A stretch of DNA of 64,000 nucleotides, from the NCBI GenBank assembly GCA_964632315.1, contig CAZWEM010000017.1, forward strand, positions 10,879 to 74,878, read 5' to 3'. The DNA is from an uncultured archaeon (GTDB lineage: Archaea > Asgardarchaeota > Lokiarchaeia > Sigyniarchaeales > SOKP01). Both the position numbers and the translations under genes were made by a program. Each line of letters opens with the position of its first letter. The stretch's first letter is position 1. Positions 50,158 to 57,640 of the stretch are shown here, in pieces. The notes beneath the pieces were generated by a model. That model saw only the letters and a list, made by a program, of their open reading frames with translations, searched no databases and was not told where the DNA came from.

Positions 50158-50724
50158 TTGAAGAAAATGGAATGGTTCAGATCCCTCCTTCAAAAAATGT
50201 TAGCTGAGACTTTAGATGATCTCAAAAGTGACTCCGATTACATAAAAATGAAGTTACCAATAGAAAAAATCACCAATCAATTTGAAAAATCTTTAAAGAT
50301 TCGAGCTGAACATGGCATTATTAATGCAAAGATTAGAGAAGCTAAGCTTAGTGATATTGAGATTTTTCAAAAATTACATGAATTAATTTGGCAAAACACG
50401 CATATGCGATATAAACCATTTTCAAGTGATCTTTTAAGAGATCTAATAAAAGATCCAAACATAACATTTTTGATCGCACAAGTTGATGGTATTGACAGCG
50501 GTTTCGGAATCGTATATTTTACGGGAAATAAAAAAGATGTTGGAGTAGTTGCTGCATTAGGAGTTCTCCCGACGCTTCAAGGGAAAGGATTAGGAACCAT
50601 TTTAGGTCTTAAAATATGGGAATTTTTTAAAAATAAGGGTCTTAAAGAATTACATTGTAGGGTTTCAAAAGAAAATAAAAATGGGTATAAATTTATTCGA
50701 AGTCTTGGATTCGAAGAATATTAA
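50158..50724 (+). CDS. GNAT acetyltransferase (tandem paralog 1)
   Basis: LGVLPTLQGKGLG motif A; N..GYKFIRSLGF; TTG start. Confidence 0.88.
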   Translation: MKKMEWFRSLLQKMLAETLDDLKSDSDYIKMKLPIEKITNQFEKSLKIRAEHGIINAKIREAKLSDIEIFQKLHELIWQNTHMRYKPFSSDLLRDLIKDPNITFLIAQVDGIDSGFGIVYFTGNKKDVGVVAALGVLPTLQGKGLGTILGLKIWEFFKNKGLKELHCRVSKENKNGYKFIRSLGFEEY

Positions 50725-50742
50725 ATTAGGTGGATTTTTAAG

Positions 50743-51330
50743 ATGGGAAAATTAAAATCTTTTTTCTTAAAATTTTCGAGGGAATTAATGAGTATAGGAA
50801 ACAAGGATATAAATTATATTCAAATGCGACTTCCTGTATCAATGATAACCCCAGATTATGAACAAAACTTAAAGGATAGAGTTTCACTTGATATTTTAAA
50901 AGCTGAAATTCGAGAAGCAACTATGGATGATTTAGAAAGTCTTATAGTTCTTCATGATTTAGCTTGGCATTCTACTCCAATGCCATATCGACCTTTGGAT
51001 AAAGAATTAATTATTGAGAACATAAAGGATGATGAGATTATCTTTCTCATTGCAAAAGTTAATGGAATAGATAGTGGATTTGCATTGATATATTTCACAG
51101 GTACCGATAAAAAAATTGGAGTAATTGCAGGAATGGGAGTTCTTCCTCGATTACAGAAAAGAGGGTTGGGAACAATGTTAGGTTTAGAGACGTGGAATTA
51201 TTTTAAAACTCGTGGTGTAGTCGAGTTGCGATGTAAAGTATATATTGATAACAAAGCTTCCTATAATTTTATCAGAGGCCTAAAGTTTGAAGAATATGAT
51301 GATGATTTTGTCCAATGGAAAATGCTTTAA
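50743..51330 (+). CDS. GNAT acetyltransferase (tandem paralog 2)
   Basis: MGVLPRLQKRGLG; collinear with upstream paralog over its whole length. Confidence 0.9.
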   Translation: MGKLKSFFLKFSRELMSIGNKDINYIQMRLPVSMITPDYEQNLKDRVSLDILKAEIREATMDDLESLIVLHDLAWHSTPMPYRPLDKELIIENIKDDEIIFLIAKVNGIDSGFALIYFTGTDKKIGVIAGMGVLPRLQKRGLGTMLGLETWNYFKTRGVVELRCKVYIDNKASYNFIRGLKFEEYDDDFVQWKML

Positions 51331-52104: not shown

Positions 52105-52923
52105 TTAGGAAATTTTTGAACCACAATCAGGACAATACTTACCTTCACCCTTTAATTCAGAACCACAGTTAGGACAAAATTTTGGGCGGGTCCCAACCAC
52201 CTTTTCTTCAACAGCATACGGAGATTTCGTGGGTTGACTAACTGGTGCTACAGGAGTTACGGGTGGTTGTGGAGCTTTAGGGGCATTAGGCATTGGGGGT
52301 TTTGCGACAGTAGGCATGCTATATCTATTTTCGAGTTTAGCAAGTTTAAAGAACCCTATAACTTGGAGAATGAATCCGATTATAGCAGTAATGATAAGGA
52401 ACCCAAGAGCATAAAGCAAGGCTCCTGTTCTTAGCTTTTCTGCACCATCAATAGTCTCTCGAGCAATATGTTCCGGAAACATAGATCTGTTTTCTTCTAA
52501 AAAATATTTCAAGTTATCCCATGCTTTCATTTCAATTGAATAAGAAATGATGAAAAGAATGAAGGAAATTACTACAGGAACAATACCAATTAGAAGATTA
52601 AACCAATAATAACTGGGAATATAACCCATACCCATAGGTAAGGCTCCAAACGGGAATACCAATAAAACAATACCTACTATAAGAAATGGGATACACACAA
52701 ATTTCAATACGAAAGCGGTGATATATTTCGACCGGAATTCATCTAAATATTGGCTATTTAACCTATAGTTTATCATTTTAATGTTTCCAAGGGCCATAAA
52801 TAGAAAAATTGCAGCTATAATACCAGTAATGCCAGTAACTATCGTTAAAACTGTCATAATGGCTACGAGATTCATATTCTTTCCGAAGTCACGCCATAGA
52901 GACTCTAATTCTTCATCTGACAA
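52105..52923 (-). CDS. Multi-TM protein with Pro-rich linker and C-terminal zinc ribbon (DUF973-like)
   Basis: Several TM helices, PTVAKPPMPNAPKAPQPP linker, CPNC-x10-CPDC; TTG start preceded by AGGTGA. Confidence 0.8.
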   Translation of the reverse strand: MSDEELESLWRDFGKNMNLVAIMTVLTIVTGITGIIAAIFLFMALGNIKMINYRLNSQYLDEFRSKYITAFVLKFVCIPFLIVGIVLLVFPFGALPMGMGYIPSYYWFNLLIGIVPVVISFILFIISYSIEMKAWDNLKYFLEENRSMFPEHIARETIDGAEKLRTGALLYALGFLIITAIIGFILQVIGFFKLAKLENRYSMPTVAKPPMPNAPKAPQPPVTPVAPVSQPTKSPYAVEEKVVGTRPKFCPNCGSELKGEGKYCPDCGSKIS

Positions 52924-53132: not shown

Positions 53133-53636
53133 ATGTGGATGAATTTGGATATTCATATTAGACTTGCTAGCTTAAAAGATATCTCGACTATATTACAAAT
53201 TGAGAAAGATTGTTTTGAGGAGCCTTGGACAAAACCCATTTTCAAAATGATGTTGAAACGTACTTCTTTGAATGATGAAGGTCAGGGATCTCATAATTTT
53301 TATGTTTCTGAATTATTGGATGAAATTGTGGGGTATATTATATGGGAAAACGAGTATATTTATAGGAATGATGATGATAGCATGAGCTTTATCGGTCATA
53401 TTATGAATCTTGCCATAGCATCTAAACAGAGGAGACGCGGTTTTGGAAGATTGCTTATAGAATTTGCATTTAATAAGATGAGAGCTGGAGGTATAAATAA
53501 CTGCTATTTAGAAGTAAGAGAGAGTAATCTTCCTGCTATATGTTTGTATGAAAGTGTTGGAATGTCGTATAATAAGAGATTAAAAAATTATTATTTCAGC
53601 GAAGATGGTTTAACTTATTTTAAAAAGCTGCAATAA
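53133..53636 (+). CDS. rimI: RimI-like N-acetyltransferase
   Basis: IEKDCFEEPW, GHIMNLAI...RRRGFG, LEVRESN..AI.LYE, NYY.SEDG. Confidence 0.85.
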   Translation: MWMNLDIHIRLASLKDISTILQIEKDCFEEPWTKPIFKMMLKRTSLNDEGQGSHNFYVSELLDEIVGYIIWENEYIYRNDDDSMSFIGHIMNLAIASKQRRRGFGRLLIEFAFNKMRAGGINNCYLEVRESNLPAICLYESVGMSYNKRLKNYYFSEDGLTYFKKLQ

Positions 53637-54586: not shown

Positions 54587-56929
54587 ATGTATAAGAATTT
54601 AGACAATTTATTAAAGAAAATTGTGCTAATTGTTTGTCTTCTATTACCATTCGTTAATTTGTTGGTTAATTCTATTCCCATAATTATTATGAGTGATCTA
54701 GAAGATAAACCACTGGAAATGAATGAACTAAGAAACGAGATACCATTTTCTTCCGCCGAATTAGTTTCTAAAACCGGATATGCTATTATTGTTGGTATTT
54801 CGGATTACCCCGGGACAAGCTCTGATCTATCATATTGTGATGATGATGCCCTGGCAATTTATTCGATTTTGCTTGATGAGTTTAACTTTAAATCTGAAAA
54901 TGTTTATTATTTACAAGATTCTGAAGCGTCTTTACAAGGAATAAGTAACGCCTTTGATGAAGTTGCCAATCAAATTGGACCAGATGATGTTTTTTTCTTT
55001 TATTATTCGGGTCATGGAGGGGCTTCTACAACTAATGGTGGTGTACATTCTTATTCAATCGACTCACCTCATCCCTATAGTAATTACTATGACCACATGT
55101 GGAGTATTTATCATGAAGATGCTGCATATATGAGAGTGCATTTTGATGCCTTAAGTTTAGAATATGGATGTGATTATGTATATCTTGGTGATACTGACTT
55201 AGCAGATGGATGGTATTATGAAGATTATACTGGATCTCAAGGGGCTTTCTGGTCCGGATGGATACCACTTCTTTCTGATAATAGAATCTATATTCGAATG
55301 ATAACTGATTATTCAATTACAGCCAATGGTTTCAGCATAGACCAATATGAAGTAGAAGTCTATAATGGCACGCATTTTTTATGTTCTTATGATTCTATTC
55401 CTTACGATCCTGAATACTTCTATTTGGATACTCTGTTAGACTCTAAATTGGATTCATTAAACTGTGACGAAACATATGTTGTTCTTGATGCTTGTAATAC
55501 AGGCGGAATGATTAATGAAATTCAGCAAAATGATAGATACATAATGACAGCATGCACGGATGAGGAATCTAGTCTTGAATCATCTAACTTAGGTCATGGC
55601 GTCTTTACAAATTACTTTTTAAACTCTCTTGAATATTCAGTTGATGGAAATGACGATGGGGCTAAATCTTTTGAAGAAATGTATACTTATACCTACTCAA
55701 ATGCAGTTTCCTATTCGACATCTTTAGGCTATACACATCATCCGCAAGAATCTGATGGAATTTCAGGAGAAGCTGTTTTAGAAACAGCAATAGGTGGATT
55801 ATATCTGAATAAAACTGCAAATTCTCTAAATTACTCCTTCTCTCTTTATGGTACTGGAGAGATTGAAGAACTCTATCTTTGCATATGCGAAGTTACTGAT
55901 TCAGTGCTTTATCAAACTCATGATTTAATGGAAGACTCCATTTCAAACACGGGATTTGAAAATTATTCGGGTATCATGACTTTATCGGGGGCTTCTGATC
56001 TTACTGGATATGGTTTATTTGCAAGGATTGAAGGAAATAATGTAATTATATGGAATTACACAGATTCAGCAGATTATGATGGTGACTCGTTGTCTGATGT
56101 TGTTGAAGTTTCAAAGGGCTTAAACCCTAGAACTGGAGATACTGATTCGGATGGTTTAGGGGATGAGGAAGAGTACTTTGGTCTTACGAATCCTCTCGAT
56201 CCTGATTGTGATAACGACGATTTGACAGATGGACAAGAAATAAACATATATTATACTGATCCACTTAATCCAGATTCTGATGGAGATAATATCAATGATG
56301 GATTGGAAGTTATGCTAGGATTAGATCCTTTAGACTCGCATATAAACTTGCTGACGTTTATCTTAAATATAGCTGGATTTGTAATAATCATATCCACTGC
56401 GGGTTATGCAATTGTAAAAACTATCAAGACAACTAAGAAAAAATCAATGAAGAGTATCCCTAAGAAATTTATTGAGGGATCATATAATACTCAAAATGTT
56501 TTAATGGTAGAAAAAAAGGATAGACCCGTATCCAGGTATTCAAGTTATTATACTAGATCACCAGTTCAACAGATGGAAGTAACAACTAATGAAATCCGGA
56601 ATATTATTTTATATAAGACTCCCCTACCTAAACAACATGATTCAAATGAAGGAAAATATGCAATATTCGTTTCTAATCAAGCATTTTTAGCATTAAAACA
56701 AGGAAAAGCCAATGAAGCGCTAAATTTATTTGTAAAATCATTAATGTTAGGAGTTCCCGAACCGTACAATACCCAAATTAAAAATATGCTTTTACAGACT
56801 TTAGATCAAGTTCCTACTAGTAATCAAACTTTAGTACAAGACGGTCAAAAGCTAAAATTTTGTACTTATTGCGGTGCACAAAATCTTATTACTAGTAAAT
56901 TTTGCAGAAAATGTGGGAGGGGGATGTAA
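54587..56929 (+). CDS. Membrane-anchored caspase-family (C14) protease with CUB-like insert, Ca-binding repeats and cytoplasmic zinc ribbon
   Basis: YAIIVGISDY, FFYYSGHG (His143), VLDAC (Cys303), HGVFT; DxDxDG-like repeats; TM; CTYC-x10-CRKC. Confidence 0.85.
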   Translation: MYKNLDNLLKKIVLIVCLLLPFVNLLVNSIPIIIMSDLEDKPLEMNELRNEIPFSSAELVSKTGYAIIVGISDYPGTSSDLSYCDDDALAIYSILLDEFNFKSENVYYLQDSEASLQGISNAFDEVANQIGPDDVFFFYYSGHGGASTTNGGVHSYSIDSPHPYSNYYDHMWSIYHEDAAYMRVHFDALSLEYGCDYVYLGDTDLADGWYYEDYTGSQGAFWSGWIPLLSDNRIYIRMITDYSITANGFSIDQYEVEVYNGTHFLCSYDSIPYDPEYFYLDTLLDSKLDSLNCDETYVVLDACNTGGMINEIQQNDRYIMTACTDEESSLESSNLGHGVFTNYFLNSLEYSVDGNDDGAKSFEEMYTYTYSNAVSYSTSLGYTHHPQESDGISGEAVLETAIGGLYLNKTANSLNYSFSLYGTGEIEELYLCICEVTDSVLYQTHDLMEDSISNTGFENYSGIMTLSGASDLTGYGLFARIEGNNVIIWNYTDSADYDGDSLSDVVEVSKGLNPRTGDTDSDGLGDEEEYFGLTNPLDPDCDNDDLTDGQEINIYYTDPLNPDSDGDNINDGLEVMLGLDPLDSHINLLTFILNIAGFVIIISTAGYAIVKTIKTTKKKSMKSIPKKFIEGSYNTQNVLMVEKKDRPVSRYSSYYTRSPVQQMEVTTNEIRNIILYKTPLPKQHDSNEGKYAIFVSNQAFLALKQGKANEALNLFVKSLMLGVPEPYNTQIKNMLLQTLDQVPTSNQTLVQDGQKLKFCTYCGAQNLITSKFCRKCGRGM

Positions 56930-56974
56930 ATTACTATTAAAAGTTATGCAGATACAATAAAAAGAGATAAATAC

Positions 56975-57640
56975 GTGCTAGAGTTTTCCCAACCAACTGA
57001 AATTTATTTTCCCGATAAGTGTATTATTTGTTTTAACAAGGCAGATGATAAAATTCACCGTGCATATTATGGAAGATTTCTTCCAAACACTAATTATAAG
57101 TATGATTATAAATTAGAACTACCAGTATGTCATTCTTGTAAAGCTAAATTAGAGATGAAAAGAGGATTACAGAGTAAATCCGGGAAAATTTTATGTTTTA
57201 GCTTGATTTTAGGTCTTATATCCTTTATGATTCTTACTTTTACCTTTTATTCTCCCATTTTTGGCTTGGCACTTTTATTCGTTTTATTTGCATTTCCCTA
57301 TTTGGCTCACCACTTAAAAATGAAAAATCATATCAAACTAGACGAACATATAGGCATCAATTTCTTCCCAGGTGAAAAGAATGTTTTAAAATTTGTTTTC
57401 ACGAACGCAAGATTCGCTAAAGAATTGGAAAGCATAAATCTTAAAGTTCTCGAGCAAAAAATAATTACACAACCAGAACCAGAAATAATCACTACACAAC
57501 TAGAACCAGAAACAATAAAAGAACTCCCAATAGAAGCACAAGCTGAGAAAAAATATATAATTTGTCCATCTTGCTTGAGTTCTGTGGAAGCTCATCATAA
57601 ATTTTGTACTAATTGCGGGAGTGTATTAAGATCTGATTGA
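56975..57640 (+). CDS. 2-TM protein with N-terminal CxxC pair and C-terminal zinc ribbon
   Basis: FPDKCIIC...LPVCHSC, two TM, CPSC-x10-CTNC; GTG start. Confidence 0.75.
   Translation: MLEFSQPTEIYFPDKCIICFNKADDKIHRAYYGRFLPNTNYKYDYKLELPVCHSCKAKLEMKRGLQSKSGKILCFSLILGLISFMILTFTFYSPIFGLALLFVLFAFPYLAHHLKMKNHIKLDEHIGINFFPGEKNVLKFVFTNARFAKELESINLKVLEQKIITQPEPEIITTQLEPETIKELPIEAQAEKKYIICPSCLSSVEAHHKFCTNCGSVLRSD

Follow-up and report, generated by a model that had tools for sequence, protein, structure and literature searches.

A caspase-fold protease with a nested CUB domain and a conserved partner gene in Asgard archaea

In this work, we analyse a protease gene from an uncultured archaeon (Asgardarchaeota; Lokiarchaeia; Sigyniarchaeales; SOKP01), encoded in a 64,000-nucleotide stretch of DNA (assembly GCA_964632315.1, contig CAZWEM010000017.1, positions 10,879-74,878) that we call the window. 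The gene encodes a protein of 780 amino acids (aa) in which a caspase-type (C14) fold with an intact catalytic dyad is interrupted by a CUB domain, and which continues into an Ig-like sandwich, a stalk of repeats, one transmembrane (TM) helix and a conserved tail. A conserved gene for a two-TM protein follows directly. We consider it reasonably probable that the two proteins form a surface complex, with the protease as catalytic subunit and an occurrence almost confined to Asgard archaea (Promethearchaeota/Lokiarchaeia-type); this complex would act as a Ca2+-dependent Arg/Lys protease coupled across the membrane. The features on which the argument draws are, with the basis of each in brackets:

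54587-56929 (+), protease gene, encoding the membrane-anchored C14 protease of 780 aa (P0001) (open reading frame list and translation)
54617-54691 (+), N-terminal hydrophobic segment, aa 11-35, with KK before it; a signal peptide or uncleaved signal anchor (Kyte-Doolittle scan)
54770-55042 (+), first part of the C14 fold, aa 62-152, with the probable S1-pocket residue Asp87 and catalytic His143 (codon 55013) (Pfam PF00656 at aa 64-151; alignment with AtMC4 and AtMC9)
55043-55363 (+), inserted CUB domain, aa 153-259, in loop L3, with the Ca2+-site candidates E192, D196 and D241-x-S243 (Pfam, VIA and profile)
55364-55786 (+), second part of the C14 fold, aa 260-400, with Asp301 and catalytic Cys303 (codon 55493) (alignment and structural match)
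55643-55678 (+), Dx[DN]xDG EF-hand-like loop, aa 353-364, within the second part of the C14 fold (conservation and model)
55787-56068 (+), Ig-like beta-sandwich after the protease domain, aa 401-494 (AlphaFold2 (AF2) strands at 362-455 in model numbering, predicted local distance difference test (pLDDT) score of about 90)
56069-56344 (+), four TSP3-type, putatively Ca2+-binding repeats forming a stalk, aa 495-586 (motif positions; Pfam below cut-off)
56348-56416 (+), TM helix, aa 588-610, then KTIKTTKKK (hydropathy and flanking charges)
56417-56929 (+), conserved, predicted cytoplasmic tail, aa 611-780 (tail alignments)
56483-56524 (+), putative docking motif of the tail, aa 633-646 (predicted-complex interface)
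56747-56776 (+), tail motif LGVPEPxN (tail alignments)
56861-56914 (+), C4 zinc ribbon of the tail, aa 759-776 (Zn_Ribbon_1)
56930-57640 (+), partner gene, a two-TM protein with an N-terminal C4 zinc finger and a C-terminal zinc ribbon (P0121, read from GTG 56975) (alignments, co-occurrence, fusion and AF2)

A caspase fold interrupted by a CUB domain

The protease gene is the sole C14 gene found in the 4.45-Mb genome and is present in a single copy. An earlier interpretation made from the letters alone (the sequence-only reading) had given its reading frame and the codons of both catalytic residues, all of which are correct. Peptidase_C14 (PF00656) matches the protein with 62.7 bits (cut-off 21.4) and a Peptidase_C13-like match lies on the second half of the fold, with the NCBIfam model caspase_w_EACC1 (NF047832) scoring 49 bits and not reaching its cut-off of 140. 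In a sequence search of the PDB, the YSGHG and DAC motifs align to the catalytic motifs of Arabidopsis metacaspases, and Cys303 stands opposite residue 139 of AtMC4, which is an alanine in the C139A entry 6w8r. When 120 related proteins are aligned with MAFFT, His143 is kept in 119 of the rows and Cys303 and Asp301 in all 120; Gly144 is essentially invariant, Asp87 is found in each of the 114 rows that have no gap at that position, and Glu331 is conserved in at least 90% of them. Residues of the EF-hand-like loop, which lies between two predicted helices, are likewise invariant or nearly so.

We modelled aa 40-500 with AF2 from an alignment of 108 sequences (pLDDT 92.1, predicted template modelling score (pTM) 0.87) and compared the model with 48,161 PDB representatives by VIA structure search. 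The best match is AtMC4 (6w8r_A) with a Z of 25.0 over 217 residues (root-mean-square deviation (rmsd) 2.2, model range 23-365), followed by metacaspase 9 (Z of 24.7) and by MALT1, legumain and caspases at a Z of about 22, and all of these matches span the insert. Over model residues 22-265, the large-subunit (p20) chains of caspases superpose with an rmsd of 1.9-2.1, and this close alignment across both catalytic residues indirectly supports a canonical geometry of the dyad in the predicted structure. Foldseek placed MALT1 caspase-Ig3 chains on top (E value 7.9e-12) because an Ig-like sandwich follows the protease domain in both; the rmsd of about 19 Å points to a different arrangement of the domains. 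The C14 fold with an intact His143/Cys303 dyad that had been read from the letters is thus borne out by profile, structure and conservation. Since Asp87 and Asp301 align to the S1 acids of metacaspases and paracaspases and match the metacaspase pocket, the S1 pocket is probably acidic, with Arg or Lys as the likely P1 residue.

In clan CD, the catalytic His sits on loop L3, which also contributes to S1, and the Cys on L4, as in His144/Cys186 of caspase-7 and His133/Cys179 of PmC11 (PMC4357240). The insertion, which begins within about ten residues after the catalytic His, is therefore placed in L3. It separates His143 and Cys303 by 160 aa, outside the usual clan CD range of roughly 40-55 residues, and a comparable spacing of 150-169 aa is found in 109 of the 120 relatives; ten others (P0110-P0120) have a spacing of 43-50 aa and lack the insert. 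The long spacing is a CUB insertion and not a loss of the fold, and the insertion is a genuine domain rather than a chance likeness.

This identity comes from three sources. The Pfam CUB family (PF00431) matches aa 154-251 with 23.2 bits (cut-off 21.4), and related Asgard CUB domains score 30-36 bits. Model residues 114-220 (aa 153-259 of the protein) match 2wno_A with a Z of 12.1 (101 residues aligned, rmsd 2.8), and the roughly 20 further matches over the range of the insert are all CUB domains (Z of 12.1-10.7, about 100 residues, 19-24% identity), from TSG-6, neuropilins, cubilin, C1s, MASPs, enteropeptidase, PCPE-1 and Kremen. A profile built from 54 inserts finds cubilin at 8.7e-12 and the CUB domains of enteropeptidase, neuropilin and MASP-2 at 1e-4 to 1e-5. 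The CUB-like insert of about 110 aa suggested by the sequence-only reading is therefore well founded. Among 98 relatives, E192 is conserved in 95, D196 in 98, D241 in 97 and S243 in 72, and these residues align to the corresponding positions of cubilin and enteropeptidase. We take E192, D196 and D241 to occupy the positions of the Glu/Asp/Asp Ca2+ ligands of Ca2+-binding CUB domains, which suggests that the insert is a CUB domain of the Ca2+-binding type with its putative site at E192/D196/D241. In a FastTree phylogeny of the C14 core, a single branch (support 0.48) separates the ten insert-less proteins from the others, and a single insertion event is likely.

Stalk, membrane topology and the downstream partner

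Beyond the Ig-like sandwich, a motif scan finds four regular Dx[DN]xD repeats at aa 496-571, as had been noticed before. TSP3_bac (PF18884) matches are precomputed for most homologues, and the number of TSP3-type repeats varies from 4 to 20 among orthologues, which accounts for most of their length range of 770-1200 aa.

The hydrophobic stretch of aa 11-35, which follows KK and has a similar counterpart in most full-length homologues, and the single TM helix, followed by a lysine-rich stretch, enclose a 550-aa loop that contains 18.5% D+E and only 1.3% K and 1.3% R, compared with 16% K+R in the tail. Across 85 homologues the median K+R content is 2.5% in the ectodomain and 18% in the tails, against 12% in the open reading frames of the window. 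From the distribution of charges and the hydropathy we infer that the ectodomain lies outside and the tail inside. The depletion of K+R fits an outside Ca2+-binding domain, and it fits equally a protein resistant to its own Arg/Lys-directed activity. An extracellular caspase-fold protease, as proposed earlier, accordingly agrees with the charge and hydropathy pattern and with secreted relatives that carry signal peptides. The accompanying premise, that characterised caspases and metacaspases are mostly cytoplasmic, needs an addition for prokaryotes: predicted membrane and/or extracellular forms are not rare, with 135 of 671 prokaryotic C14 homologues placed in these classes as early as 2012 (PMC3501461).

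The tail is marked by the motifs PxPK and LGVPEPxN and by the zinc ribbon, all invariant among the aligned tails of homologues. Zn_Ribbon_1 (PF13240) matches aa 758-778 with 27.4 bits (cut-off 25), and its four Cys ligands are invariant in 55 aligned tails. The single TM helix and the zinc-ribbon tail of the sequence-only reading hold, and its TPR-like hairpin is not confirmed: no Pfam TPR model matches the tail at E ≤ 1.

The same reading had singled out the protease as the best candidate for an undescribed system in the window. We found no description of it in the literature that could be searched, but the candidate is larger than the one gene, as a conserved partner had been left out. The partner comprises an FPxxCxxC...LPxCxxC zinc finger, a two-helix membrane hairpin, a small conserved domain, a variable linker and, usually, a C-terminal zinc ribbon. 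Its AF2 model has a pLDDT of 90.2, and a VIA search with the whole model gave only generic helical-hairpin matches (Z ≤ 6.8), a search by which the cytoplasmic beta domain was barely tested. An Atlas feature search with the partner returned only an unnamed Promethearchaeota cluster. A word-indexed search found just two proteins, and an exhaustive profile search found 43 representatives at E ≤ 1e-30, with about 55 listed rows matching the core.

A partner homologue lies directly 3' of the protease in all six loci inspected (the window and five others), whereas the other neighbours differ. Across 201 genomes of the phylum, the nine genomes of the window's own family with the insert-bearing protease (G000 and eight more) are also those with strong partner matches (E < 1e-48); for 10 of the 11 protease copies, the match is found 2-2.6 kb downstream on the contig and strand of the protease. 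In G159, the match falls inside the same 1054-aa open frame as the protease. This fused form is also seen in P0099, in which the partner core (aa 878-1036) is joined to a shortened protease tail (hhalign probability 99.8%). Both fusions (P0099 and G159:C64:6779-9454 (-)) are single frames, of 1036 and 1054 aa, that have lost the distal tail and its zinc ribbon. Neither of the two insert-less loci inspected has a partner neighbour.

The junction between the two genes is also conserved. The last codons of the protease, TGT GGG AGG (TGT GGA GGT in one locus), contain a Shine-Dalgarno-like sequence of the GGAGG type at all six junctions. In three of the five orthologous loci an ATG comes right after the protease stop, with the Shine-Dalgarno-like sequence about 9 nt upstream of this start; in the other two the start overlaps or lies 14 nt downstream. 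In the window (junction 56921-56977), ATT 56930 comes right after the TAA of the protease, with GGGAGG 9 nt upstream in the protease's last codons; protease and partner share one frame with one stop codon between them, and the 15 codons between ATT 56930 and GTG 56975 are homologous to the N-termini of orthologues. The partner thus seems to start at ATT 56930, and we propose that its translation is coupled to that of the protease gene.

We folded the TM helix and tail of the protease together with the partner, supplying alignments, in three runs and with three controls. The median ipSAE was 0.70 (runs 0.67, 0.74 and 0.70) against 0.00 for the best control; the mark used for this score is reached by 58 of 80 solved complexes and by 2 of 110 mismatched pairs, a calibration only roughly valid here because the alignments were our own. 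Contacts agree between the runs to at least 90%, with a partner pLDDT of at least 87. In the model, the second helix (TM2) of the partner lies packed against the protease TM region (aa 586-615), and strands in the N-terminal zinc-finger domain of the partner pair with tail residues 633-646, a motif that reads YNxLxVEKKxKP across the family. The prediction supports binding of the partner by the TM helix and tail of the protease.

Distribution, working and rival explanations

At least 180 clusters match the protease family. Among the best 120, the named ones are nearly all Asgard (with Lokiarchaeota, Promethearchaeota, Thor-, Hermod- and Hodarchaeota labels), one short contig is labelled bacterial, and the proteins are called 'caspase family protein' or 'hypothetical'. 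In a phylum survey of 201 sampled genomes, 8 of the 40 genomes sampled from the window's own family encode the nested protease, as does one genome (G094) from a sister family. The CUB domain of the insert, searched alone in the same survey, matches other Asgard families at 37-45% identity, and in these it belongs to tandem CUB-PPC-C14 proteins (L003-L007) with classical signal peptides and no TM helix; the five secreted forms inspected, C14-bearing or full-length, all lack a TM helix, a tail and a zinc ribbon. These secreted tandem relatives, which the sequence-only reading had not taken in, show that the pairing of CUB and C14 is recurrent in Asgard extracellular proteins, and the window family is its nested, membrane-anchored version. 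One of the tandem loci (L003, 509-3304 (-)) holds two adjoining CUB-PPC paralogues, one with a C14 domain and the other with a C-terminal TM helix in its place.

A literature search for Asgard, Loki or Promethearchaeota caspase, C14 or CUB proteins returned nothing on the family within an incomplete coverage of the literature, and we found no description there of a CUB domain nested in a C14 domain or of the partner protein. The expectation that the architecture is undescribed agrees with what could be searched.

We propose that the protein works as follows. Ca2+ would stiffen the TSP3 stalk and load the CUB site. The CUB domain, beside the substrate cleft, could then capture a protein ligand or gate access to the cleft, and the protease would cut the captured protein after a basic residue. 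The TM helix, the tail and the partner may link the ectodomain to the cytoplasm, either reporting inwards or placing the protease under control from inside. The surface protease with a CUB exosite and a signalling tail that the sequence-only reading had put forward retains its architecture apart from the TPR-like hairpin; an exosite role for the CUB domain and a signalling role for the tail are plausible extensions of it. More specifically, the protein may be an archaeal protease-receptor in which the capture or cleavage of an extracellular protein by a CUB-gated ectodomain is relayed, via the TM helix and the tail motif, to the zinc-finger partner, a suggestion that we make tentatively.

Several observations weigh against the two-protein surface complex as we picture it. 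In the CUB domain, the position before D196 is Tyr in 81 of 98 relatives and a rare variant, Cys195, in the window protein, and the insert columns of the alignment contain no conserved Cys corresponding to the disulfide cysteines of animal CUB domains. TSP3_bac (PF18884) reaches only 16.6 bits in this protein, below its cut-off of 25. Archaeal membrane proteins commonly end in a zinc ribbon, as do the products of two genes nearby, so the ribbon by itself is no sign of signalling. The tenth carrier genome, G094 (87% complete), has the protease and no partner match. The patchy spread of the protease, with 8 of 40 genomes even in its own family, fits an accessory role.

This last point also feeds a serious rival, a plain nutritional surface protease that would digest environmental proteins into peptides for an amino-acid-fermenting archaeon, its CUB, Ig-like and TSP3 modules only binding and holding substrate, and its tail and partner being needed for anchoring, export or assembly instead of signalling. 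Sediment archaea are reported to use extracellular clan CD peptidases on detrital protein, the tandem CUB-PPC-C14 relatives resemble ordinary secreted proteases in their signal peptide and PPC domain, and the insert-less relatives stop right after a C-terminal TM anchor. A tail of about 170 aa with invariant motifs, a partner that co-occurs one to one and is fused to it in one lineage, and the predicted docking of the tail exceed the needs of anchoring, and the two insert-less relatives inspected do without the partner. For all its merits, we therefore consider a purely nutritional role rather unlikely.

A different role for the insert itself would be that of an autoinhibitory, Ca2+-switched lid that holds the protease inactive until the CUB domain is displaced by Ca2+ or a ligand. 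The insertion starts at most ten residues from His143 in a loop that helps to form S1, the putative Ca2+-ligand acids are kept, and metacaspases are commonly activated by Ca2+ (PMC4357240). The confident single-state model, however, aligns well with the active form of caspase folds. Known Ca2+-binding CUB domains, moreover, act as ligand binders. A lid seems improbable to us on these grounds; it is compatible with the surface complex that we favour, of which it is a variant.

Two further explanations are unlikely. That the protein is a non-catalytic adhesin or receptor on a caspase-like scaffold is very improbable: periplasmic caspase-like domains with incomplete active sites exist, such as that of DdvA (PMC11506125), and CUB, Ig-like and TSP3 are adhesion-type modules, but among 120 relatives, which are 40-70% identical overall, the active-site His, Gly, Asp and Cys are kept in 119-120, and the K+R depletion of the ectodomain would be expected of a protein resisting its own Arg/Lys-directed activity. 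A cytoplasmic cell-death or antiviral caspase with reversed topology is hardly credible, for although many prokaryotic C14/CHAT proteins act in defence and PADLOC reports a generic 'caspase' model at 45 bits, charge and hydropathy put the protease outside, the CUB, TSP3 and EF-like Ca2+ sites are extracellular-type modules, the zinc ribbons lie on the opposite side of the membrane, PADLOC matches neither the partner nor the upstream protein, the two adjacent ones tested, and the wider flanking genes are housekeeping by their Pfam names.

We considered and rejected several assignments for the neighbourhood. A defence system was set aside, as the generic caspase model is the only PADLOC match and the neighbours include GNAT acetyltransferases, a thiolase and a cobalt ABC transporter. 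The gene upstream of the protease encodes a 209-aa protein (P0122, 53806-54435 (+)) without a Pfam match, whose first 125 or so residues match Asgard profilin-type chains (5zza at E 8.4e-10, 5yed at 4.2e-9) and the eukaryote-type 'Profilin' 7pbh (1.8e-4), followed by a C-terminal extension of about 85 aa; it was rejected as a part of the module because it is not kept beside the protease in the five homologue loci inspected. The 3.5 kb upstream of this profilin-like gene hold three genes for GNAT acetyltransferases (50158-51330 (+) and 53133-53636 (+)). MoxR-type AAA and VWA_CoxE genes were rejected as linked genes, with only two distinct neighbourhoods among those inspected being too few: they stand just downstream of the protease locus in L010 (10143-12381 (-)) and L015 (5722-8063 (-)), one with a nested protease and one with an insert-less relative, and are absent from the window. 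The window also encodes a 272-aa multi-pass membrane protein (52105-52923 (-)) with weak DUF973/DUF996 matches and a C4 zinc ribbon at its end, which brings the membrane proteins with C-terminal zinc ribbons to three in a span of 6 kb.

Caspase-family proteases have mostly been studied as cytoplasmic enzymes of death and immunity, and CUB domains as extracellular recognition modules of animals. The window protein unites the two in one archaeal protein that appears to face outwards, with the CUB domain nested in an active-site loop. Together with its partner it makes up a conserved two-gene module, for which a membrane complex is predicted and one natural fusion form is known. Coupling of surface proteolysis to the cytoplasm by this module, if real, would represent a new kind of archaeal surface sensing or processing, with a bearing on how Asgard archaea deal with partner cells and surrounding proteins. 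Should the protein prove to be a protease-receptor, the closest archaeal relatives of eukaryotes would possess a device for proteolytic signalling across the membrane, assembled from modules (a caspase-Ig unit, a Ca2+-binding CUB domain and TSP3 repeats) otherwise known from extracellular and immune signalling in animals. Even as a feeding protease, it would still combine an unusual nested-domain design with CUB domains of the Ca2+-binding type in archaea.

Comparison with known systems

The protease domain is closest to the metacaspases AtMC4 and AtMC9 (MEROPS C14B), with which it shares the fold (Z of 25.0 and 24.7, rmsd of about 2.1-2.2), the SGHG and D-x-C motifs and the S1 acids, and plausibly also a dependence on Ca2+. 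Unlike them, it appears to be membrane-anchored and to face outwards, carries a CUB domain of 107 aa in L3 that widens the His-Cys spacing to 160 aa from about 45-55 aa, lacks the type I prodomain and the type II linker, and adds Ig-like, TSP3, TM and zinc-ribbon parts. MALT1 resembles it in having an Ig-like sandwich directly after the caspase domain and an Asp two residues before the catalytic Cys, but is cytoplasmic, with N-terminal death and Ig domains and without a CUB domain, stalk or TM helix.

On the side of the insert, the animal CUB proteases (C1r/C1s, MASPs and enteropeptidase) also pair CUB with an extracellular protease, and their CUB domains match the insert at a Z of 10.7-12.1; the Ca2+-binding CUB domains of cubilin, TSG-6 and neuropilin share the fold and the Glu/Asp/Asp positions. 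Whereas the animal enzymes are serine proteases with separate, tandem CUB domains, the window protein is an archaeal cysteine protease with a single nested CUB domain that lacks the usual disulfides. The tandem CUB-PPC-C14 proteins of Asgard archaea are extracellular and draw on the same CUB and C14 families, but arrange their domains in series (CUB, PPC, then C14) behind a signal peptide of the cleavable type. A subtilisin-CUB protein of Bdellovibrio, noted in 2008 in a study that called the role of prokaryotic CUB domains unclear, is likewise a prokaryotic protease with a Pfam CUB domain, but a bacterial serine protease with its CUB domains in tandem at the C-terminus (PMC2605481).

For the arrangement across the membrane, the closest likeness is to DdvA of Myxococcus (PDB 8rot), a transmembrane anti-sigma factor with a periplasmic TPR-CHAT domain (PMC11506125). 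Like the window protein, as we read it, DdvA combines an extracytoplasmic caspase fold (Z of 11.8) and one TM helix with a zinc-bound cytoplasmic domain that holds a partner. It differs in its N-in orientation, incomplete active site, TPRs and soluble sigma-factor partner; archaea are not known to have sigma factors. The window protein, in turn, has an intact dyad, a CUB insert and a two-TM partner. By this analogy, the coupling of a caspase-fold module across the membrane has its nearest precedent in DdvA.

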